Source: Candidatus Goldiibacteriota bacterium
GTDB taxonomy: Bacteria; Oederibacteriota; PGYV01; DYJU01
DNA length: 64,000 nucleotides
Direction of reading: 5' to 3'
Assembly: GCA_938034975.1 (NCBI GenBank)
Contig: CALHNI010000017.1
Location: 5,130-69,129, forward strand
Part shown: piece after piece, positions 1,021-59,060 of the stretch
Position numbering within the stretch: position 1 is the first letter of the stretch
Layout: each line of letters starts with the position of its first letter
Made by a program: the position numbers and the translations under genes
The notes under the pieces: model-generated
Databases searched by the model: none
Told to the model about the DNA's origin: nothing
Seen by the model: the letters and a program-made list of their open reading frames with translations, nothing else

Positions 1021-1446
1021 TTATTTTTTTATTGGCTCTTTACTTGCTTTATCAATTTCGGCTTTTAAACTTTCAACCCACTGATTATAAAGTGGTTCTA
1101 TTTCTTTTAAACGTTCCCTTGATAATTTAACCCATTTACTCTCTGGTGGAGTAAAAAGATCTATAACTGTCTGATACTGAACATAAGCATTTTTTAATGC
1201 ATTATCTTCCATCAGCATTTCATATTCTTCTGGTGAAATTTCTTTTTTGTTTAATTTATTGTCATAATATTGTTTTTTTAATTCTGGATTTTTATAAAAG
1301 GATAAGAATTTTTCGCCTTCCAAATATTCTCTTTTTGCTCTCCTTATAACTTCATACCTTGCCATAAAATAAGCAATTATTAAGGTAAAAATAACGAGAG
1401 CGCTTATTGTTAAAATATTTTTTATTTTGTCTTTATCTTCAATCAT
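1021..1446 (-). CDS. hypothetical membrane-anchored protein (single N-terminal TM helix, charged helical ectodomain)
   Basis: 141-aa ORF with SD aaaggagg 6-7 nt upstream of the ATG. TM segment ILTISALVIFTLIIAYFMA. No family recognised. Preceded by a long conserved leader (see 1447-1725). Confidence 0.6.
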   Translation of the reverse strand: MIEDKDKIKNILTISALVIFTLIIAYFMARYEVIRRAKREYLEGEKFLSFYKNPELKKQYYDNKLNKKEISPEEYEMLMEDNALKNAYVQYQTVIDLFTPPESKWVKLSRERLKEIEPLYNQWVESLKAEIDKASKEPIKK

Positions 1447-1725
1447 TTAAAACCTCCTTTTAAATGATAAAGTATTATGAAAAGTTTTAACGCTTTTTAC
1501 TTAAAAATCCTTTTATTCATATTCTTCTGTTGCCTTTGTTTCCCCTTTATCAAAGGGGGATTTTAGGGGAATTCACATCCATTCTCTTTTTCTAGCTCTC
1601 TTTTAATTTAAAATCTCCCCTCACCCCTCTTTATTAAAGAGGGGGAAATGTATATTATTTTCAATACTTTTAGTATATATTTTAATCTCTGCCTTCTTTC
1701 TTTTTCATAGAATTTTTCACATTAT
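1447..1725 (-). promoter_or_regulatory. Long conserved 5' leader (family-2 element, copy b) of the 141-aa gene; homologous to the etfB leader at 53983-54292
   Basis: The reverse complement aligns end to end with 53983-54292. By eye it is about 90% identical in the first ~115 nt and about 85% in the last ~110 nt, including the SD. Contains C/G-clamped hairpins (cccctctttattaaagaggggg; tcccctttatcaaaggggga). Confidence 0.6.
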
Positions 1726-1738
1726 AAATGATAAAATG

Positions 1739-23689: not shown

Positions 23690-23756
23690 TATAACTCCTT
23701 TTTAATTTTGTATAATAATAACACAGGATTTTTTTATGGTCAATTTTATATTGTTT

Positions 23757-23957
23757 CCTGAAAATCGTATTAGGAAATTACGATTTTCAGAAGAAAAAAC
23801 CCAAAAATAAAAAAAAATATTTAAAAAATAAAATATTTAAAACAAAACTTGAGTTTTATTTTAAATTAAAAAATTGGGTGTATAAAAGTAATACAATATA
23901 AAAATAATAAAAAATTTTATTTTCCATAAAAAACGCGTTTTCTAACGCATTTTTACC
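23757..23957 (+). repeat. Family-1 intergenic repeat, copy C (H1 - core - H2)
   Basis: H1 cctgaaaatcg-tattaggaaatta-cgattttcag (23757-23790). Internal small hairpin aaaac..gtttt. Core gggtgtataaaagtaatacaatataaaaat. H2 ccataaaaaacgcgttttctaacgcatttttac (23924-23957). Confidence 0.75.
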
Positions 23958-23973
23958 CCAAAAATGGTTAATA

Positions 23974-36055: not shown

Positions 36056-36091
36056 AGAAATTTTTTAAAAGTTAAACTGCTTTTATAACTT

Positions 36092-36266
36092 CCGTAAAAA
36101 CTCATTTTCTAACGCGTTTTTACATCAAATAAAACTCCTTAATACATATATCAAGTTCAGGTATAAAACTTAATAATACAGAATTACCTCTGTATCCTTT
36201 GTATGTCATCTCTGCTTCATTTTTCTCTGTCCTGAAGATCGCATTAAAAGAGTGCGATTTTCAGGG
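36092..36266 (+). repeat. Uncoupled family-1 hairpins: H2 (36092-36123) and H1 (36231-36266) separated by unique sequence
   Basis: H2 is ccgtaaaaactcattttctaacgcgtttttac. H1 is cctgaagatcgcattaaaagagtgcgattttcaggg, followed by acttatttttt. The family core motif is absent between them. Confidence 0.65.
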
Positions 36267-40094: not shown

Positions 40095-40181
40095 ATTTTA
40101 ATCCTCCTAAAATATTTTTATTTTGGATTTTATAACATAAAAAAAAAATAAAAACAAGAGAAAAAATACAACCATAGTAAT

Positions 40182-40559
40182 CGGTTAGTTACGGGGGTGT
40201 AAAATAATTATTTTTTTTGTCCACGCACCCTTAAGTGGTGCGTATGTTTTTTGCCACGGTTCAAAATTTATATCCGGATATAATATAAATTGGATAGTGT
40301 AGAAGTGTCCCTATTTTGTAAAGAGGGAAAAAGGGAGATTTGGTGACATAGAAAATTAAAGGGAGATGAATCTAAAAAAGTGATTGAATGAGGCAAAAAA
40401 TCTCCCTTTAATCCCCTTTTGCCAAAGTGGGATTAAAACGAGAATGACTTTCAAGTCGCCGCATCATTTATGGATGCGTATGTATTTTTATATTCAAACC
40501 CCGTAGGCATGAAGCGTCCTGGAACAAAAGAATAATCGTCTCCCCTACATAACTAACCG
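40182..40559. other. Unassigned structured intergenic element bounded by a long-range inverted repeat (candidate ncRNA or MITE)
   Basis: cggttagtta(cgggg) at 40182-40196 is complementary to (cccct)acataactaaccg at 40542-40559. The interior has two similar GC hairpins each followed by tatgtNtttt (40223-40250, 40459-40486) and a family-2-like module (40296-40445). Confidence 0.3.
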
Positions 40560-40567
40560 GTTACCAA

Positions 40568-40601
40568 CCGTAAAAAAGCATTAGAAAATGCGTTTTTACG
40601 G
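40568..40601 (-). repeat. Solo H2 hairpin of family-1, immediately downstream of lptG
   Basis: ccgtaaaaaagc-attagaaaat-gcgtttttacgg. The loop is the reverse complement of the attttctaat loop seen in plus-oriented copies. Confidence 0.65.
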
Positions 40602-44383: not shown

Positions 44384-44604
44384 TATAAAAACGCGTTAGA
44401 AATTGTGTTTTTACGGAAAAACAAACTGTTTTTATTATTTTTATTTAATAAATTTTCATTTTTATAATACATTACTTTTATTCATCTGTTCTTTTATTTC
44501 AAATAAAACAAAAGTGTTGTTTTAAATATTATATATTCCTTTAATAATAATTTTTTTGTATGTTTTTCTCCTGAAAATCGCAATCATCTATAGCGATTTT
44601 CAGG
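44384..44604 (-). repeat. Family-1 intergenic repeat, copy E (complete, minus orientation)
   Basis: Plus-strand order is H2rc (44384-44416), core rc (ataatacattacttttattcatctg), internal hairpin aaaacaaaagtgttgtttt, then H1 cctgaaaatcgcaatcatctatagcgattttcagg (44570-44604). Confidence 0.75.
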
Positions 44605-44902: not shown

Positions 44903-47900
44903 ATGAAAAAACTAATTTTACTCTTATTAATAATAAACATTTTATCACCTATTTATTCTGCCCCTGTTTCTGAACAAATCATTATTGATCAAATAGGTTA
45001 CAGGACAGATGCAGATAAATTTTTCATGATTGCGGATCCAAGGACAGGTCAGAATTCTGCAATAACTTATGTGCCTGGTGCAACTGTTCAGCTACGTAGA
45101 TCATCGGATAATCAGGTAATGCAAATAATCACATTGAATGTGTTTAATAACGGGAATGAATATATGCCGGCAGGGGATGTTGTATGGCAGGGAAATTTTT
45201 CTTCTTTTACTACTCCGGGAATTTACCATATTTATGATCCAACAAATGACAGGCAGTCATATAATTTTGAAATTGGCAATAATATATATAATACAATATT
45301 AAGACAGGCAGTTAAATCATACTATTATCAAAGGTGTGGAACTGCCATTACTTCTAATTATGGAGGAACATGGACGCATGCAGCATGCCACACCCAACAA
45401 CAGAATGCTTTGCTATATGATGGTGGAGTTGTTCAAGGGACCCAAAGAAATGTATCAGGCGGTTGGCATGATGCAGGTGATTACAGGAAATATGTAACTT
45501 TCACTTTTACAACATTATGGGATTTACTCCATGCTTATGAATGGTTTTCTGACAGGTTCAGTGATGATACTGGTATTCCTGAATCGGGCAATGGTATACC
45601 GGATATTTTAGATGAAATAAAATATGAACTTGATTGGCTTTTGCGTATGCAAAAAACAGATGGGTCTTTATATTCTGGTGTTTTTGTAACAAGTGGAGGA
45701 AGTGGAGGACAAGGGGATCCAAGCACAGAAACAACAACTTATTATTATGCTAATTATTCAACCGCTGCAACAGTAACCGGTGCAATGGCATTTGCTTTAG
45801 GTGCTAGAATTTTTGCACCTTTTAATGCTTCATATTCTTTAACATTAAGAACAGCTGCTGAAAATGCATGGGCATTTTTGGAAACTCATACAAGTAATAT
45901 ACAATACAATCATAGTGGATTTCAAAATGCAAATGCTAACTGGGCAGATAATCATGAGAAACAAGGACGTGTTACTGCGGCAGCAGAACTTTTTCATCTT
46001 ACAGGTCAGAGTAAATACAGGGATTATGTTGATACCAATTATAACAGTTCTGCTACTCGGGAAAGCTGGGGGCATCAGCCGATATTAAGTGGATATTTTG
46101 AAACAGGAGGCTCTGCAATTATACAACGCGGACTTGTTTCTTATTGTCTTGCTCCTGGAGCAACAACAGCAGTTGTTAATGCCATTAAAAATTCATTAAA
46201 TCAGGGTATACAGAATCAGACATACGGCCAAAGAAATTCAGATGCATATAAAGCATATATGTGGGATGGGCATTACACCTGGGGTTCAAATCAATTAAAA
46301 GCAGAATGGGCAAATCTGGCTTTATGGGGAGTAAAATTAAATGTGAATCCATCTCTTTCTTCTGCTTATCAAAAAGTAGCAGAAGAATATTTACACTATT
46401 TCCATGGAAGGAATCCTTTGTCATGGTGTTATTTAACTCAGTCAAACAGTGCAGGTGCAGACAAACAAATAACGCAAATATATCATGGATGGTTCTGGGA
46501 TGGAACATCGTGGGATACAAATCCGGCACCTGGATTTCTGGCAGGTGGACCTAATGCAAATTATGTTCAGGATACACAAAATAGTGGTGGCACTCCTGTA
46601 TATCCGCCCGGTGGTGAGCCACGACAAAAATCATATAGGGATTGGAATACAAACTGGCCTGATTGTTCATGGTCAGTAACTGAACCTGGAATTTATTATC
46701 AGGCAAGATATGTGTTTTTATGTGCGGCATTTGCAGGCGCAGTTGCAACACCGACTAATACACCAACATCAACTTTTACAATAACACCAGGCGGACCAAC
46801 ATTGACTTTTACTCCAACTTTTACAACCACTATGACAAATACACCAACAGCAACTGCAACAACACCACCGCCTTTTTTATTAATATATGATGGTGATACA
46901 ACCGGCTATAAATTATCTGATGGAACAGTTTATAATGGCGGGACTGGAACAATAACTGAAATTGCTGGAGGAAAAACAGGAAACGGTATGAGGTTATATT
47001 ATACTAATCCTGCATGGTGGCAGGAACACAGATGGGATAAAACAGTAAATGTAAATATAGGTACAAATACTCATTTGGTTTTTGATGTAAAAGCAGAATC
47101 AGGTAGTGTTAATCAATTTTTAGTTAGAATAAACTGGTCAGATAATTATCCTAATGTTGCTAATTATCTTATAGAAGGTGGTGGAATAGATACAAACTGG
47201 AAAACAGCAAAAGTTCCATTGTCAGTCTTATTGGAAGCAGGGCAGACACAAATAGATTTTATTACTTTTATAAATAACTGGAATGCTGATTATACGGTTA
47301 TTGTTGATAATATACGGTTAGAAGGGGGAGATCCCACACCAACAAATACTTCTACTTTTACCTTTACAAATACTGTAACCAGGACAAACACTTCAACCAG
47401 AACAAATACTGCTACAATGACAAATACCTATACTTTAACCAATACGCAAACAAATACAGCAACATACACACCATCAAGCACATCAACAATGACAAATACA
47501 ACTTTATTTACTAATACACCAACAAATACACCAACAAATACTTCTACTTTGACATCAACATCAACATCAACTTTAACAAGGACTTCAACTTCAACACCGA
47601 CAGTTACTTCAACTGTTCAAAAAGTAATTGTTGGTGCTATAAGGTGGGATGCATGGACAGGACCACAGAATTATATAGGAACTCAGGTAGAAAAGACATT
47701 GAGTCCTTCACAATATCATTACAGAATTCCTTTTTATGGAATAGAATATTCTTCAAATTCTGTAAATATCCAGTGCACGACACAGGAGTGCATAGACCAG
47801 GAAATATCCTATGCAGCTTCAATGTGTCTGGATTACTGGGCATTTATCTGGTATCCGGCATCAAGCGGATTACAACAGGCGCTTAATCTTTATTTATCAA

Positions 47901-49462
47901 GCAGTTATAAAAGTTTGGTAAATTTTTGTCTGATTGTTGAACATAATAATTATGTATCACAAATTTCAAATGCCCAAATAGTGAATTACATGCAAATGTC
48001 GGAGTATCAGAAGGTAATGGGAAACAGACCGCTTATTTATTTTTTTGACGGAAGTGATCCTAATTTAAATGCATCAAATATAGCATCTTTAAGGTCGCTT
48101 GCAGTAGGGGCTGGTCTTGGCAATCCATATATTGTGCTACTGCGCATAAGTGGTGATTTGACCAGAATCAATGCTCTGGGGATGGATGCCTGGAGCATGT
48201 ATGCTGTATCATGGGTAGGCAATGGCGCTCCATATAGTGCACTTGCTTCAACTGATGTTTCGCAATGGAACTGGGTAGGAGTTTCAAATGGATACAAATT
48301 CATACCACATGTTACATCCGGCTGGGATAAAAGACCAAGGCATGATAATCCGGTATCCTGGGAACCAGATCCAGGGCCTGATGCCTGGGTGCAGATGCCT
48401 ACACCGCTGGAACTTGCAAATCATGTTCATGAAGCTGTAAACTGGGTTAATAATAATCCATCTTCGGCAGAATCACGGGCAGTGCTGATTTATGCATGGA
48501 ATGAGTTTGATGAAGGTGGTTACATATGTCCAAATCTTTCAGCATATGGTGGAACGCAACGGCTTGATGCATTAAAAAATATTTTATGTCCTGCCGGAAC
48601 TATGACAAATACAAATACGCCTACAAAAACTCCAACAAATTCAATAACACCGACTTATACAAATACATTTTCTTCAACTTCTACTCAAAGTCATACTAAT
48701 ACTGCTACAAATACAATAACATTTACTCCAACCAATACTTTAACGCCTACAGAGACAGTAACAGGCAGTCAGCCACCAACATTGACAAATACAAATACAG
48801 ATACATTTACATCAACATCAACAATGACTTTAACTATTACTCCAACACAAACACAAACCTCAACCTTCACATCAACACAAACTCCAACTTATATATTTAC
48901 AACAACACCCTCATTTACATCTATATCTACTTTAACAAACACAAATACTTTCACGCAGACAATGACAAATACCCAACAACCAACATTTTCTTTTACACCA
49001 ACAAGCACGAATTCAAATACTCAGGTATTTACAAATACACCAACACTTACAATGACATTTACTTTTACGGCAACTTTGCCTGTAAATACCAATACACCTA
49101 CTCCTCAAACAACCGCAACACAAGCAGTGTCTGAAGAATTTAAATTTGATGAAAAATATACAATAGTAAATTATCCAAATCCTGTAATTGGGAATAATGA
49201 TATAAACATAAAATATAAATTAACTCAACCTGAAAACCAGGTTATAATAAGATTATATACAAATGCATTCAGATTGGTAAAAGAAATAGGATATAGTAAA
49301 TCAAAAATAACAATTGATACTTATGGTATAAGGGAAATAACATTGAAAAGCAATGATATATACAATCTTTCAAAAGGTGCTTATTATTATATATTAATTG
49401 CAAAGGATACAAGTGGTAAAGAAACAAAAAGTAAAATAAAAAAATTTTTAATTATAAAATAA
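44903..49462 (+). CDS. Secreted multidomain glycanase: Ig-like + GH9 catalytic domain, CBM-like module, second uncharacterised glycosidase-like domain, Thr-rich linkers, T9SS-like C-terminal domain
   Basis: 1519 aa with a signal peptide. GH9 motifs GGWHDAGDYRKYV, FLAGGPN and WSVTEPGIYYQA. Three T/N/P-rich linkers. A domain carrying LIYAWNEFDEGGY. C-terminal YPNPV...GAYYYILIA...KKFLIIK resembles Por_Secre_tail/FlgD-Ig type sorting domains. Confidence 0.85.
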   Translation: MKKLILLLLIINILSPIYSAPVSEQIIIDQIGYRTDADKFFMIADPRTGQNSAITYVPGATVQLRRSSDNQVMQIITLNVFNNGNEYMPAGDVVWQGNFSSFTTPGIYHIYDPTNDRQSYNFEIGNNIYNTILRQAVKSYYYQRCGTAITSNYGGTWTHAACHTQQQNALLYDGGVVQGTQRNVSGGWHDAGDYRKYVTFTFTTLWDLLHAYEWFSDRFSDDTGIPESGNGIPDILDEIKYELDWLLRMQKTDGSLYSGVFVTSGGSGGQGDPSTETTTYYYANYSTAATVTGAMAFALGARIFAPFNASYSLTLRTAAENAWAFLETHTSNIQYNHSGFQNANANWADNHEKQGRVTAAAELFHLTGQSKYRDYVDTNYNSSATRESWGHQPILSGYFETGGSAIIQRGLVSYCLAPGATTAVVNAIKNSLNQGIQNQTYGQRNSDAYKAYMWDGHYTWGSNQLKAEWANLALWGVKLNVNPSLSSAYQKVAEEYLHYFHGRNPLSWCYLTQSNSAGADKQITQIYHGWFWDGTSWDTNPAPGFLAGGPNANYVQDTQNSGGTPVYPPGGEPRQKSYRDWNTNWPDCSWSVTEPGIYYQARYVFLCAAFAGAVATPTNTPTSTFTITPGGPTLTFTPTFTTTMTNTPTATATTPPPFLLIYDGDTTGYKLSDGTVYNGGTGTITEIAGGKTGNGMRLYYTNPAWWQEHRWDKTVNVNIGTNTHLVFDVKAESGSVNQFLVRINWSDNYPNVANYLIEGGGIDTNWKTAKVPLSVLLEAGQTQIDFITFINNWNADYTVIVDNIRLEGGDPTPTNTSTFTFTNTVTRTNTSTRTNTATMTNTYTLTNTQTNTATYTPSSTSTMTNTTLFTNTPTNTPTNTSTLTSTSTSTLTRTSTSTPTVTSTVQKVIVGAIRWDAWTGPQNYIGTQVEKTLSPSQYHYRIPFYGIEYSSNSVNIQCTTQECIDQEISYAASMCLDYWAFIWYPASSGLQQALNLYLSSSYKSLVNFCLIVEHNNYVSQISNAQIVNYMQMSEYQKVMGNRPLIYFFDGSDPNLNASNIASLRSLAVGAGLGNPYIVLLRISGDLTRINALGMDAWSMYAVSWVGNGAPYSALASTDVSQWNWVGVSNGYKFIPHVTSGWDKRPRHDNPVSWEPDPGPDAWVQMPTPLELANHVHEAVNWVNNNPSSAESRAVLIYAWNEFDEGGYICPNLSAYGGTQRLDALKNILCPAGTMTNTNTPTKTPTNSITPTYTNTFSSTSTQSHTNTATNTITFTPTNTLTPTETVTGSQPPTLTNTNTDTFTSTSTMTLTITPTQTQTSTFTSTQTPTYIFTTTPSFTSISTLTNTNTFTQTMTNTQQPTFSFTPTSTNSNTQVFTNTPTLTMTFTFTATLPVNTNTPTPQTTATQAVSEEFKFDEKYTIVNYPNPVIGNNDINIKYKLTQPENQVIIRLYTNAFRLVKEIGYSKSKITIDTYGIREITLKSNDIYNLSKGAYYYILIAKDTSGKETKSKIKKFLIIK

Positions 49463-49538: not shown

Positions 49539-52500
49539 ATGGATAAAAAAGTGAAAACGATAAGAATTTTTTTTGTGATTTATATTTTTTCAGTATTAAA
49601 AAGTTTTGCGCTTTTCCCATTTGTGTTACCATGGAATGATGCTACAGATACAATCATTGATTTAAGCTATATAATTTACAGGGATATAAATACCGAAGGT
49701 TTTGTGAGAGTTTCACAGGATGGACATTTTGCAGTAAATTCAGGCAGGATAAAATTCTGGGGAACAAATACAACTTTTGGTGCTAATTTCCCTTCAAAGT
49801 CAAATGCACAAAATGTCGCAGCGCGACTTGCAAAATATGGGTTTAATATTGTGCGGCTTCATCATATGGATATGTATGATATATGGACAACTGTTAATCC
49901 AGACAGAGTTTTACATCCGGGTAAACTTGATTTACTTGATTATTATATTTACCAATTAAAACAAAAAGGGATTTATGTTGATATAAATTTATTGGTTTCA
50001 AGGCCTTTTAACAGGGGAACTGATTTGCCAGCTGATATTGAACAGATTACTGACTGGAAAGTGAGAGATGCATTAGGATTTTTTGATCCGCAGACAAGGC
50101 AATTGCAAAAAGATTATGCAAGAGATTTACTGACACATACAAATCCATATACAGGTAATGCATATATAAATGAACCGGCAGTAGCATTTATAGAGATAAA
50201 TAATGAAAATGGATTAACGCAGGCATATTTAAGTTCACAACTTGATAATTTACCGCCATATTATTATAACCTTTTAAACACACAATGGAACAACTGGCTC
50301 AAAAACAAATATGCTACTCATTCTGCGCTTGAGGCAGCATGGGGCGTTTTAAATCAGCCATTGGGTTCTGAGATGTTGACAAATGGCAGGTTTCAAACAG
50401 GCTTTTTAAATCCCTGGAATGTGGAATTTCATAGTCCTGCAACAGGGAATGCAACTGTTGAAACAGGAACAGGACCACATAATTATAATTGTGCTAAAAT
50501 TACTGTAACAACACCGGGAACAGAAGGATGGAACATTCAATTTAATCATCCAAATTTAGTGTTAAATACAGGAACTCCATACACTTTGACTTTTTATGCC
50601 AAAGCAAGCGAACCTAAAACAATAAATGTTGCAGTGATGATGGCGCATTCCCCGTGGTCAAATCTTGGGTTTTCAACGTATATAAATTTAACAACAAACT
50701 GGCAGGCATTTACTTTTGTTTTTGCTCCTTCTCAATCAGACACAAATGCAAGAATAAATTTTGGTAATATGGGACTTGCAACAGGAGTTTCATTTTATTT
50801 TACAGATGTATCTTTAAAACCAGGTGGGCTTTTGGGTTTAAAACCAGAAGAAAATTTATATGGAGGAGGTATTGATAATTTCAAAAATAGCAGTGATATT
50901 TACAGGTCAAGAGAATCAAAGAAAGATTGGTTCAGGTTTTTACAGCAAACAGAAACAGATTATTGGATAGATATGAAAAATTATATAAAAAATATCCTAG
51001 GCGCAAAACAAATAGTTTTTGGGACAATAATAGGATGCTCAACACCAAATGTGCAGAGTAATTTGGATGCAATAGATACACATGCATACTGGCAGCATCC
51101 TGAATTTCCAGGGCAACCGTGGAGTTCAACTGACTGGTATGTTAAAAATAATCCGATGGTTAACAATCAGCAAGGGTCAACAGTAGCAGGGTTAGGAATG
51201 AAATCAGTATTAAATAAACCGCATTGTGTAACAGAATATAATCATCCGCACCCATATACGTATGAAGCAGAAAGTATGTTTTTTCTTTCTACATATGCAT
51301 CATTACAGGACTGGGATGCGGTATTTGAATATTCTTATAACGGCAGTGATAACTGGAATACACAAAAGATTGATGGATTTTTTGATGTAAATCAGAATAC
51401 AGTGAAAATGGCATCAATGATACCAGCAGCACTTGCATTTTACAGGGGAGATATTTTACCTGCCCAGCAAACAGTAGTTATACCTTTAAATTATGAAACA
51501 GAGATAGAAGAATTATTAGACACATGGGCATGGTGGCTTGTTGATGGGACAAAATTAGGTGAAAATCCAAAAACTTCATTAATACATAAAGTAAAATTAG
51601 CAGTAGAAGGACAGAGTATTCCGCCTGGAACTTTGTCTCCAGGTTCCACAGATACTTCTGGTAATATTATGATCTCTGATACTGGTCAGATTGTATGGGA
51701 TTTAAGTAATTCGCAGGCAGGGTATATAAAAGTTGATACTCCAAAAAGTAAATTTGTTTATGGATTCCAAAATGGCAGGACCTATTACTTATCTGGTGTT
51801 ACAATAACTCCGGGTAACACAATAACAAATGGGTTTTCTTCAATTGCAATAACAGCAATGGATGGCAATTCTATACAGGAAGCAGTTAGAATTTTAATTA
51901 CAGCACTTGGCACACAGAAAAATACAAATGCACAGTTTTATCAATATCCAAATACTTTGATTTCTTTTCCACCAACTATGGGAATTAATTTAACTTTGCG
52001 TAATCAATGGGGAACATCTCCAGTAGAAGTTGAAGGAATACCAGCAACAATAATTTTGCCTTGTGCTTTTTCAGATACTTATGTGTGGGCACTTGATAAT
52101 AAAGGAGCAAAAAAATCATCTGTTCCTATTATTAATAACTCAGGATATGCGTCATTTTCAATAGATCCTTCATATGAAACATTATGGTATGAAGTAAATG
52201 TGAATCATCCGGAATATACGCCAACAAATACAAAAACAAATACACCTATTTTAACTCCAACTCATACATATACACCTGTTGTTGGAAGTATTGTTGATGA
52301 TTGTGAAAATCTTGGAACTACGCAAAATTTATGGGGTGGTTGGTGGTATACTTATAATGATATAAGTTCAACAGCAACAGGTTCTAAACAAGCCCCTGGT
52401 GGTCCTGTAACTCAAATGGGTAAATATAAATTAACCGGAAATTTAGTTTCAGGTGGCTGGGCAGGTGCTGGGACCAATCTTTCCGGAACAGGACAGGAAA

Positions 52501-53522
52501 TTGATTTAACACCGTTTGAAGGTATAAGTTTATATCTAAAAGGAGATGGGACTCAGGTAAGTATTGCAATAGTAACAGGTAATTTTTCTGATGTCCCACA
52601 GTATAACCACTGGCAATATACTGTGACAACATCAAATGAATGGACATTTTATCAAATTCCTTTTTCATATTTTACAATACCCTGGGGCTCGCCATTGCCT
52701 TTTGATTTAACAAGGTCAGAAGATATACAATTTAAAATTGCAGATACAGGTGTTTTTGATATAGAAATTGATGATGTGATGTTTTATTATTCTTTATCTT
52801 CAACTCCGACTTTTTCATTGACACATACAAATACTATGACTTTTACATCAACTCATACATATACTTTTACAAGCACAGAGACAAGAACTTTCACAATAAC
52901 TTATACACCAACAGAGACAGTTACAGGCAGCCAACCACCAACATGGACAAATACAGATACGCCAACACATACAACAACATACACATCAACCAATACATTT
53001 ACAAATTCATCAACATTTACCTTAACAAACACAAATACCAATACGCCAACAAATACAATAACTAAAACTTCTACTCATTCAGCAACAAATACAATTACAT
53101 ACACGCCAACAAACACAAATACTTTTACTTATACATCAACTTTTTCCCAGCAAATAACGAATACACCAACTCACACCAAAACCTCGGAAGATGATGAATT
53201 AAAATTTGATAATACTGTTAAGATTATAAACTATCCTAATCCAGCAAATACAAATGCTGATATTAAAATAAGATATAAGGTAAAAGGAAGTGAACAACAG
53301 GTTATAATAAGAATATATACAAATGCATTCAGATTAATAAAAGAAATTAATTATAAAAAATCAGAAATATCAATTGATTTTAATGGTATAAGAGAAATAC
53401 GTATTAAAAAGCAAAATATAAAAGATATGGCAACTGGTTCATATTATTATATTATAATCGCAAAGGATAAAAACGGTAGTGAGGTTATAAGCAAAATAAG
53501 TAATTTGGTAATTTTAAAATAA
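49539..53522 (+). CDS. Secreted multidomain glycanase: clan GH-A (GH5-like) catalytic domain with inserted CBM-like module, beta-sandwich domains, Thr-rich linker, T9SS-like C-terminal domain
   Basis: 1327 aa with a signal-like N-terminus. FNIVRLHHMD; FIEINNENG (candidate NE acid/base); CVTEYNHP (candidate nucleophile Glu). CenC-like NGRFQTGFLNPWN module. CIA30/CBM11-like DDCENL...WGGWWYTYND module. The C-terminal domain is about 60% identical to that of 44903-49462. Confidence 0.78.
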   Translation: MDKKVKTIRIFFVIYIFSVLKSFALFPFVLPWNDATDTIIDLSYIIYRDINTEGFVRVSQDGHFAVNSGRIKFWGTNTTFGANFPSKSNAQNVAARLAKYGFNIVRLHHMDMYDIWTTVNPDRVLHPGKLDLLDYYIYQLKQKGIYVDINLLVSRPFNRGTDLPADIEQITDWKVRDALGFFDPQTRQLQKDYARDLLTHTNPYTGNAYINEPAVAFIEINNENGLTQAYLSSQLDNLPPYYYNLLNTQWNNWLKNKYATHSALEAAWGVLNQPLGSEMLTNGRFQTGFLNPWNVEFHSPATGNATVETGTGPHNYNCAKITVTTPGTEGWNIQFNHPNLVLNTGTPYTLTFYAKASEPKTINVAVMMAHSPWSNLGFSTYINLTTNWQAFTFVFAPSQSDTNARINFGNMGLATGVSFYFTDVSLKPGGLLGLKPEENLYGGGIDNFKNSSDIYRSRESKKDWFRFLQQTETDYWIDMKNYIKNILGAKQIVFGTIIGCSTPNVQSNLDAIDTHAYWQHPEFPGQPWSSTDWYVKNNPMVNNQQGSTVAGLGMKSVLNKPHCVTEYNHPHPYTYEAESMFFLSTYASLQDWDAVFEYSYNGSDNWNTQKIDGFFDVNQNTVKMASMIPAALAFYRGDILPAQQTVVIPLNYETEIEELLDTWAWWLVDGTKLGENPKTSLIHKVKLAVEGQSIPPGTLSPGSTDTSGNIMISDTGQIVWDLSNSQAGYIKVDTPKSKFVYGFQNGRTYYLSGVTITPGNTITNGFSSIAITAMDGNSIQEAVRILITALGTQKNTNAQFYQYPNTLISFPPTMGINLTLRNQWGTSPVEVEGIPATIILPCAFSDTYVWALDNKGAKKSSVPIINNSGYASFSIDPSYETLWYEVNVNHPEYTPTNTKTNTPILTPTHTYTPVVGSIVDDCENLGTTQNLWGGWWYTYNDISSTATGSKQAPGGPVTQMGKYKLTGNLVSGGWAGAGTNLSGTGQEIDLTPFEGISLYLKGDGTQVSIAIVTGNFSDVPQYNHWQYTVTTSNEWTFYQIPFSYFTIPWGSPLPFDLTRSEDIQFKIADTGVFDIEIDDVMFYYSLSSTPTFSLTHTNTMTFTSTHTYTFTSTETRTFTITYTPTETVTGSQPPTWTNTDTPTHTTTYTSTNTFTNSSTFTLTNTNTNTPTNTITKTSTHSATNTITYTPTNTNTFTYTSTFSQQITNTPTHTKTSEDDELKFDNTVKIINYPNPANTNADIKIRYKVKGSEQQVIIRIYTNAFRLIKEINYKKSEISIDFNGIREIRIKKQNIKDMATGSYYYIIIAKDKNGSEVISKISNLVILK

Positions 53523-53644: not shown

Positions 53645-53802
53645 GTTGCTTTTTATTTTTATAATGTATTACTTTTATTTATCTGTTCTTTTATTTTAAA
53701 TAAAACAAAAGTGTTGTTTTAAATATTTTTATTCCTTTAATAACAATATTTTTTTTGTATGTTTTTTTCCTGAAAATCGCAATTTCCTATCGCGATTTTC
53801 AG
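53645..53802 (-). repeat. Family-1 intergenic repeat, copy F (core + H1, no H2; minus orientation)
   Basis: About 90% identical by eye to copy E over ~150 bp. H1 is cctgaaaatcgcaatttcctatcgcgattttcag (53769-53802). A second, degenerate cctga..tcagg hairpin lies at 53821-53855. Confidence 0.75.
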
Positions 53803-53933: not shown

Positions 53934-53961
53934 TTGACATAAATTAATTTTTTGCTATAAT
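53934..53961 (+). promoter_or_regulatory. sigma70-type promoter with extended -10 (TTGACA-16-TGcTATAAT) for the etfBA leader
   Basis: ttgaca taaattaatttttTGc tataat, about 20 nt upstream of the start of the conserved leader. Confidence 0.55.
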
Positions 53962-53982
53962 TTAGCAATATATTTTAAATTG

Positions 53983-54292
53983 ATAATGTGAAAAGTTCTA
54001 TGAAAAAGAAAGAAGTCAGAGATTAAAATATATACTAAAAGTATAGGAAATAATATACATTTCCCACTCTTTAATAAAAGAGGGGATAGGGGAGATTTAA
54101 ATTAGGAAGAAGAAAATCCACCTCAATCCCCCTTTTGCAAAGGGGGAGAAAAAAAGAGGAAGAAGAAAATCCCCATAAGTCCCCCTTTTGGAAAGGGGGA
54201 ACAAAGGCAACAGAAATATATGAATAAAAAGATTTTTAAGTGAAGAGCGTTAAAACTATTCACAATACTTTCAAATTTTTAAGGAGGTTTTT
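53983..54292 (+). promoter_or_regulatory. Long conserved 5' leader (family-2 element, copy a) of etfBA
   Basis: Aligns with the reverse complement of 1447-1725 from ataatgtgaaaa through the SD (aaggaggttt). Contains the hairpins cccactctttaataaaagagggg, tcccccttttgcaaaggggga and tcccccttttggaaaggggga. Confidence 0.6.
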
Positions 54293-58920: not shown

Positions 58921-59060
58921 CCTGAAAAATGTTTTTTAAACAAATTAAAATTTTAAAACAACACTAATGTTTTATTTAAAATAAAAAAATGGTGAATAAA
59001 AGTAATGCATTATATAAAAATTTATTAAATAAAAATAATAAAAAATTTTATTTCGGAAGT
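58921..59060 (+). repeat. Family-1 intergenic repeat, copy D (degenerate H1, internal hairpin, core; no H2)
   Basis: cctgaaaaatgttttttaaa; aaaacaacactaatgtttt; core ggtgaataaaagtaatgcattatataaaaat. Confidence 0.65.

Follow-up and report, generated by a model that had tools for sequence, protein, structure and literature searches.

The closest functional match to the sequences described here is found among MITEs that lie immediately upstream of genes and are co-transcribed with them, such as the Correia elements of Neisseria (PMC2649163, PMC10969869). Correia elements are small and non-coding, are bounded by terminal inverted repeats, carry a target-site duplication and are variably present among close relatives; they occur between promoter regions and genes and are therefore co-transcribed as hairpin-forming 5' UTRs (PMC2649163, PMC10969869, PMC2229807). 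A different kind of small repeat is represented by the REPINs, which are gene-less derivatives of a REP-flanked RAYT gene (PMC3116915, PMC3337134). Vsr-like nucleases, for their part, are known as selfish homing enzymes, and the EDxHD homing endonucleases, for example I-Bth0305I, are Vsr-fold nucleases produced from very small selfish genes (PMC3239194, PMC2677866). Riboswitches and other structured leaders form long, stably folded 5' UTRs that extend from a strong promoter to the SD.

The window analysed here, a stretch of 64,000 nt with a G+C content of 25-37%, contains a sequence that shares all the Correia traits listed above and which, in the manner of a structured leader, would separate a strong promoter from the SD by a long 5' UTR with a stable fold. 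Near-identical leaders of ~300 nt had been described in the original prediction before etfBA and before a gene for a 141-aa membrane protein, and both copies are indeed present, at 53984-54268 on the forward strand and 1472-1724 on the reverse strand: blastn aligns them in two blocks, with 91% identity over 135 nt (53972-54104 versus 1737-1604) and 84% over 122-125 nt (54167-54291 versus 1573-1449). A profile built from this pair and run against the window with nhmmer recovers both copies (E=1e-115 and 6e-99), as well as a third, partial match at 40278-40436 (E=8e-5). The first copy is accompanied by etfB, etfA and secA and the second by parB, the 141-aa protein gene (without a Pfam domain) and recX/alaS, and both have the same orientation relative to their downstream genes. 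G/C-clamped hairpins had likewise been noticed in the middle of the sequence, and these are far from random, as CCCCTTT-N-AAAGGGG hairpins occur 3 times against 0.00 expected from shuffles; the unit AAAGAGGG-N5-GGGAGATTT occurs 4 times (0.07 expected). The central part of the two copies differs because the etf copy holds a tandem 53-nt duplication (54099-54151 and 54152-54204, 83% identical), and the centres differ also by an unrelated spacer. The copies and the hairpin core within the first of them are laid out as follows:

53984-54268, forward strand: probable MITE of family 1, copy A, 285 nt, between the etfB -10 box and SD, delimited by copy homology and flanking repeats
1472-1724, reverse strand: probable MITE of family 1, copy B, 253 nt, with its core at 1541-1645
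54063-54200, forward strand: hairpin core of copy A, the sole part of family 1 that matches other loci (nhmmer columns ~120-278)
54063-54085, forward strand: HP1 of the copy A core
54089-54098, forward strand: GGGGAGATTT arm of the copy A core
54113-54122 and 54166-54174, forward strand: partner arms of the copy A core
54127-54147 and 54180-54200, forward strand: HP3 of copy A, present twice owing to the 53-nt tandem duplication

All ORFs within the two copies are spurious (at most 46 aa) and a transposase gene is absent. Mini-ORFs of 8 and 7 aa can be picked out by eye in the conserved blocks; neither is preceded by an SD, and this, together with the absence of the element from relatives, speaks against reading them as leader peptides. 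Two full-length copies are present in about 76 kb of this genome, and no further copies were found in the ~12 kb of the same genome that extend past the window (contigs L003 and L345). Short-read contigs of the same samples (L001, L002 and L003, which like L345 are Logan assemblies of ERR9287890 / ERR9287621) break off within it, as is expected of a repeat.

The similarity between the two loci was originally thought to run through the SD and the start codon. Homology in fact ends before either, at 54268 and 1472, and the shared AAGGAGGTTT is the SD, lying outside the element homology. The limits of copy-to-copy homology (53984/54268 and 1724/1472) are abutted by direct repeats that are different for each copy, and short inverted repeats are present at the termini:

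53973-53983, forward strand: left target-site duplication of the etf copy, TTTTAAATTGA, 8/11 identical to 54269-54279
54269-54279, forward strand: right target-site duplication of the etf copy, TTTCAAATTTT; the SD (54281-54287) and the ATG of etfB (54293) come next
1725-1735, reverse strand: promoter-side target-site duplication of copy B, TTTATCATTTA, 11/11 identical to 1461-1471
1461-1471, reverse strand: gene-side target-site duplication of copy B, TTTATCATTTA; the SD (1453-1459) and the ATG (1444-1446) come next
53984-54000 and 54251-54267, forward strand: terminal inverted repeats of copy A, 17 nt, 82% complementary
1708-1724 and 1473-1489, reverse strand: terminal inverted repeats of copy B, 17 nt, 76% complementary

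Sampling from the window gives a chance of 4e-5 for a flanking repeat of 11/11 and of about 0.03 for one of at least 8/11; for terminal complementarity the corresponding values are 8e-5 for at least 14/17 and 8e-4 for at least 13/17. Both pairs of terminal inverted repeats are short, with mismatches, and only 8 of 11 positions agree in the etf duplication. The empty etfB site of a relative (L086) carries a single TTTTAAATTCA. In the 141-aa gene, the native leader at 1442-1468 (reverse strand) forms a perfect 11-bp palindrome, ATCATTTAAAA-GGAGG-TTTTAAATGAT, whose loop holds the SD and whose stem includes the start codon; the palindrome is older than the insertion, because half of it is the duplicated target site.

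Comparison with orthologous loci separates the element from the promoters upstream of it. Relatives were taken as Goldbacteria loci reached through homologues of EtfB (86-89% protein identity) and of the 141-aa protein (86-91%); homologues of these two proteins assign the genome to Candidatus Goldbacteria / Goldiibacteriota. A consensus promoter had been claimed upstream of each copy, and both score 12/12:

53934-53961, forward strand: sigma-70-type promoter of etfBA, TTGACA-16-TATAAT with TG, 12/12 consensus, aligning with L084, L085 and L086
1739-1767, reverse strand: promoter of the 141-aa membrane-protein gene, TTGACA-17-TATAAT, 12/12 consensus

The element is absent at etfB of relatives from three lineages (L084/L085, L086 and L094) and at the 141-aa gene of relatives from three lineages (L087-L089, L090-L093 and L095/L096). 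At both loci these relatives possess the layout TTGACA-N16/17-TATAAT, short leader, SD and ATG; at etfB, L086 reads TTGACAAAATCTGATTTTTTGCTATAATTTACGAAATTTTTAAATTCAAAGGAGTGAAAATATG, with equivalents in L084, L085 and L094, and the alignment of the etfB region contains one clean gap of ~310 nt between the window and all relatives. Similarly, the element-free L087, L090 and L095 retain, at the 141-aa gene, the -35 region TTGACAAAC and the -10 box TATAAT. As element-free relatives have the same promoters, these are ancestral, and what was inserted is the element of 253-285 nt. L004, the nearest GTDB species (72% EtfB identity), has no such sequence either.

We therefore regard it as probable, at roughly 0.85, that the ~300-nt leader represents two insertions of a MITE, a non-autonomous transposable element, with lengths of 253 and 285 nt. 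The element is smaller than ~600 bp, lacks a transposase gene, and possesses terminal inverted repeats, abutting target-site duplications and empty sites. A transposase acting in trans with a staggered cut of 10-11 bp would have placed the MITE twice into the A/T-rich spacer between -10 box and SD, once before etfBA and once before the conserved 141-aa membrane-protein gene, in the lineage of this Goldbacteria genome only. The old promoters would now transcribe both genes through the element, yielding 5' UTRs that are ~260-300 nt longer and would fold into stable G/C hairpins. No strong internal outward promoter was detected on either strand (the best scores 9/12, at background frequency), nor do predictions place an intrinsic terminator in either strand of the element, so that read-through from the old promoters would be the simplest expectation; the element would be tolerated because it holds no terminator. 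Effects on mRNA stability, processing and translation would then be a by-product of insertion, not a conserved regulatory design.

The ends of the element read TAATGTGAAAAGTT... and are accompanied by an 11-bp duplication. We know of no IS family that convincingly fits such ends together with such a duplication, and neither the window nor the loci compared yielded an autonomous element that shares its terminal repeats. The two copies agree in functional position and in orientation relative to the gene, for which, with n=2, chance, target preference or selection could each account. A profile of the whole element, run against all loci compared, finds the outer arms in this genome only. Scans of GTDB, the JGI metagenomes and IMG/VR, which evidently do not include the source genome, gave 0 exact-pattern matches to the outer arms, a search that allows no mismatch and that diverged copies would escape; blastn of the element and of one metagenome MITE against the PLSDB plasmids returned no match. 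Because both the ends and the duplication differ from those of Correia (PMC2649163), the element is not a Correia element: there is no sequence similarity between the two, the duplication is 11 bp here versus TA in Correia, the terminal repeats are 17 nt and imperfect versus ~26 nt, and, unlike in Correia, no outward promoter is predicted.

The leaders had been interpreted as a shared cis-regulatory RNA that co-regulates the two genes, a reading that finds no support here. The etf copy folds well below its shuffles (z=-5.1), and copy B does so only weakly (z=-2.3). The predicted mean unpaired probability from SD to AUG of etfB falls from 0.42 in the reconstructed empty site to 0.22 with the element, whereas in the 141-aa gene the element has no predicted effect (0.31 vs 0.31). 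Predicted accessibility thus falls at etfB only, which rules out a consistent sequestration of the SD by the C-rich arms; with a modest predicted masking at one gene only, there is thus no consistent SD-sequestering design. Rfam 15, at the gathering threshold, gives 0 hits over the whole window, and searches with both copies at E<=1 retrieve chance-level hits only, to eukaryotic or unrelated families, so that no credible family emerges for either copy. A search of 16 metagenome or viral core loci likewise yielded nothing credible. Across loci, the core conserves its primary sequence rather than showing compensatory changes, and the HP3 arms are nearly invariant across 24 cores, so that no argument from covariation is possible. 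As a conserved cis-regulatory RNA, the element fails on conservation at orthologous loci and on a match to a curated family.

A riboswitch, thermometer or protein-binding leader that is conserved in the lineage and controls a small regulon is accordingly very improbable: the long structured 5' UTRs at two genes and the partial complementarity of the hairpins to the SD would suit it, but unlike a riboswitch the element is missing at all orthologous loci compared (and in L004), has no Rfam family, and ends in target-site duplications and terminal inverted repeats, and its core is not tied to gene starts, being found also between convergent genes and in phage and metagenome contigs. It is more plausible, though still rather unlikely, that the transposed element has been exapted and now serves as a common cis-regulatory leader (an RNase III/E site, a stabiliser or a partial SD mask), which is compatible with its being a MITE and would couple the membrane protein to etfBA in expression. 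Each copy is situated in a 5' UTR downstream of a strong promoter, with one orientation for both, the etf copy has a strong fold and is predicted to lower the accessibility of the etfB SD, the C-rich hairpin arms are similar to the anti-SD, and MITEs such as Correia elements modulate their neighbours (PMC2649163, PMC10969869). Against this, the predicted SD accessibility of the second gene stays constant, copy B barely outdoes its shuffles in folding (z=-2.3), the centres of the copies are unlike, with a 53-nt duplication in one and an unrelated spacer, and the arrangement is not conserved outside this genome. As a by-product, the insertion may affect etfBA expression.

The original prediction had alternatively envisaged a mobile promoter-leader cassette. 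Its mobile part is well borne out by the inverted repeats, target-site duplications and empty sites, whereas the promoters do not belong to it, being orthologous to those of relatives. If a promoter and leader had been copied together between the loci by recombination or gene conversion, with no transposition, it would be understandable that both copies begin ~20 nt past a consensus promoter and end just ahead of the SD; the two promoters, however, share no homology with one another except in the consensus hexamers, relatives have an orthologue of each at the corresponding locus, and homology between the copies stops exactly at copy-specific 11-bp direct repeats. Neither locus is occupied in relatives, so there is no donor locus either, and we find such copying hardly credible. 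Equally remote is an ancestral leader that all relatives have precisely deleted: excision between direct repeats can leave one repeat behind, which is nothing specific to this case, but for each of the two loci at least three lineages would have to have lost it precisely and independently, and the outer arms are found nowhere else.

The insertion of a MITE, which remains our preferred explanation, carries a caution, as near-identical structured "leaders" before unrelated genes can be transposon insertions, and a comparison of orthologous loci settles the question of leader versus transposon quickly. It would also mean that etfBA, a core energy-metabolism operon, apparently tolerates a 250-285-nt MITE between its -10 box and its ribosome-binding site, making this insertion a natural test case for the effects of inserts on mRNA.

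Beyond the two full-length copies, the whole-element profile matches other loci over the core only (model columns ~120-278). A related module that had been proposed at 40296-40445 proves to contain the same hairpin core (nhmmer E=8e-5, and by pattern), with the unit AAAGAGGG-N5-GGGAGATTT on both strands; the HP1-arm ... arm-HP3 layout is common to all window copies. Here the core is enclosed in a different element, whose inverted repeats were identified by local alignment of the left end with the reverse complement of the right end:

40177-40564, forward strand: MITE-like element of family 2, 388 nt, with the core at 40296-40440 and ~55-nt terminal inverted repeats
40169-40176 and 40565-40572, forward strand: sequences flanking the family 2 element, CAACCATA and CAACCGTA

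This element is located between convergent relA/spoT-like and lptF/G genes (Pfam identities), and is therefore not a leader. In one relative (L086), the core occupies the middle of a third element, which lies downstream of secA and has inverted ends of 58 nt; that element is absent from the orthologous region of the window. It had been foreseen that the similarity might belong to a dispersed repeat with no association to gene starts, and for the hairpin core this is what we observe, given its position between convergent genes and its occurrence in hundreds of unrelated contigs.

The unit AAAGAGGG-N5-GGGAGATTT, which all four cores have in common, was retrieved from at least 120 contigs of JGI metagenomes, with contig G+C contents of 26-69%, and a complementary CCCTCTT arm lies just upstream of it in 110 of the 127 JGI matches listed. 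Viral contigs of IMG/VR that carry the unit also number at least 120, often with several copies per contig, and the arm is present in 132 of the 162 matches listed. The full window-like layout of HP1, paired arms and HP3 is seen in 16 metagenome matches, with 2-74 nt between the arms. The unit is central in small elements with very different inverted ends, for example TTACTAATCAGTCCATAATTG...CAATTATGGACTCCTTAGTAA and GAGACTGTGAAAGTATT (L099, L204, L206). One element of ~95 nt matches the Mu-like Haemophilus phage SuMu and Mannheimia phage vB_MhM_3927AP2. In Pasteurellaceae, Mu-like (pro)phages possess several copies of a ~95-nt intergenic element built on the same hairpin and GGGGAGATTT unit; in some of the contigs (L232, L241), GGGGAG appears to act as the SD of the next gene (GGGGAGATTTGGCATG...). 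Examples of the phage copies are:

L217-L296: IMG/VR loci with the element, for example L221 at 7937, 8985 and 9905, L225, L246 and L284
5944-6036 of NC_019455: the copy in SuMu

In six metagenome loci, an ORF of ~115 aa ends or begins 19-37 nt from the unit. Its product is a DUF559 protein (PF04480, E=5e-33) with a Vsr-like PD-(D/E)XK endonuclease fold. The 5' half of this cassette (L130, L145 and L338) reads outer inverted repeat-TCCCCCTTT..AAAGGGGGA-N3-(A/G)GGGGGATTTT-AAGAACAA-ATG of DUF559, and the 3' half in the same loci reads DUF559 stop-AAAATCTCCCC-N3-CCCCTCTTT..AAAGAGGGG-outer inverted repeat, the outer inverted repeats being (T)GAGTGG...CCACTCGA. The loci are:

L130 6090-6520: DUF559 cassette
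L145 5290-5700: DUF559 cassette
L338 1440-1910: DUF559 cassette
L105, L118, L187 and L191: further loci of the DUF559 cassette

Read antisense to etfB, the window core contains both half-sites of the cassette in the same order, with 14-47 nt between them, and nhmmer aligns the two halves of the window profile with the sequences on either side of the DUF559 gene in L338-L340 (E=2e-7 and 3e-5). No DUF559 homologue was detected in the window by tblastn (E<=1e-3). With 14-47 nt between the arms and no DUF559, the window copies are ORF-less derivatives at best; as the halves of the core flank a DUF559 gene elsewhere, the core looks like an ORF-less derivative of that cassette. The DUF559 mini-protein itself has thousands of close homologues (4,462 clusters at E<=1e-20 among 8,000 scored), and the best 120 clusters listed are 81-100% identical and mostly on short contigs; the source names of the homologues include Syntrophaceae, Thermodesulfobacteriota and Deltaproteobacteria. 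Thousands of near-identical homologues, mostly on short contigs, are the picture to be expected of a selfish cassette that proliferates.

By analogy with REPINs and the REP-flanked RAYT gene from which they derive, we infer that the core may be an ORF-less remnant of the DUF559 cassette. The resemblance lies in the core being an inverted doublet of hairpin units, and in the same units flanking one small nuclease gene elsewhere. Unlike in the REPIN-RAYT system, the flanked gene encodes here a DUF559 Vsr-like PD-(D/E)XK protein and not an HUH Y1 (IS200/IS605-like) transposase, the ~35-nt unit spans contigs from 26 to 69% GC, Goldbacteria and Mu-like phages of Pasteurellaceae whereas REPs are lineage-specific, and the doublet is placed inside larger elements with terminal inverted repeats and target-site duplications. 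Enzymes of the I-Bth0305I type offer a precedent, by analogy, for DUF559 as a mobility or maintenance function of the cassette. EDxHD homing endonucleases reside in group I introns or between split inteins; the DUF559 gene is by contrast intergenic, between conserved hairpins and outer inverted repeats. No published account of these repeats, alone or with DUF559, was found in the part of the literature that was searched, and an earlier description elsewhere is possible. Tentatively, and with somewhat less than even confidence, the core may be viewed as the ORF-less form of an undescribed selfish cassette of very diverse genomes, whose gene-less doublets would be central in many unrelated MITE families and present in Mu-like phages, and in the window would have been carried into the 5' UTRs of etfBA and of the membrane-protein gene. 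If DUF559 drives or maintains the units, this would provide a role for a very large family of unknown function, and a second nuclease-plus-hairpin repeat system beside REPIN-RAYT.

The window harbours a second family of intergenic repeats, ~150-230 nt long, whose copies are 77-85% identical. The parts of each are two hairpins, CCTGAAAATCGC...GCGATTTTCAGG and GTAAAAACGC...GCGTTTTTAC, and an A/T-rich block that includes GTGAATAAAAGTAATGCAC; the family may be either a MITE or a terminator/promoter module:

23740-23970, 2473-2659, 1805-1926 and 58935-59053, forward strand: copies of the second repeat family
44386-44604 and 53650-53802, reverse strand: copies of the second repeat family
36090-36123 and 40570-40597: partial copies of the second repeat family

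One copy is located just upstream of the etfBA promoter and another just upstream of the promoter of the 141-aa gene. Logan contig L345 breaks inside a copy of this family; Logan contigs end in the MITE or in the second repeat, and such contig ends therefore mark these repeats.

Relatives contain a further MITE-like element, whose long inverted ends read AATATATTGTAACAGTTTAGCCACTGGTAG... / ...CTGGTGGCTGAACTATTACAATATATT: in L087 (9490-9830) it is located in the spacer between recX and the 141-aa gene, and it is also present in L084 (4790-5190 and 5830-6200). A sequence of ~85 nt (TTTTTGAATAAAAT...GGGACTATAT...GTTATTAAAGTTCAAGCG.GGATTTCAAGTGC) occurs twice, 240 nt apart, in L090 (8955-9040 and 9195-9275), within the 1.2-kb spacer upstream of the 141-aa gene. 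Small elements seem to have landed often between the genes of this lineage.

Two adjacent giant ORFs were also observed in the window, at 44903-49462 (1519 aa) and 49539-53522 (1327 aa, with CBM_4_9 and CIA30 domains). Both include long Thr/Asn/Pro-rich repeats with a 12-nt periodicity (47325-48940 and 52216-53150), and they have in common a 300-nt C-terminal block (49132-49431 versus 53192-53491) that is 72% identical.
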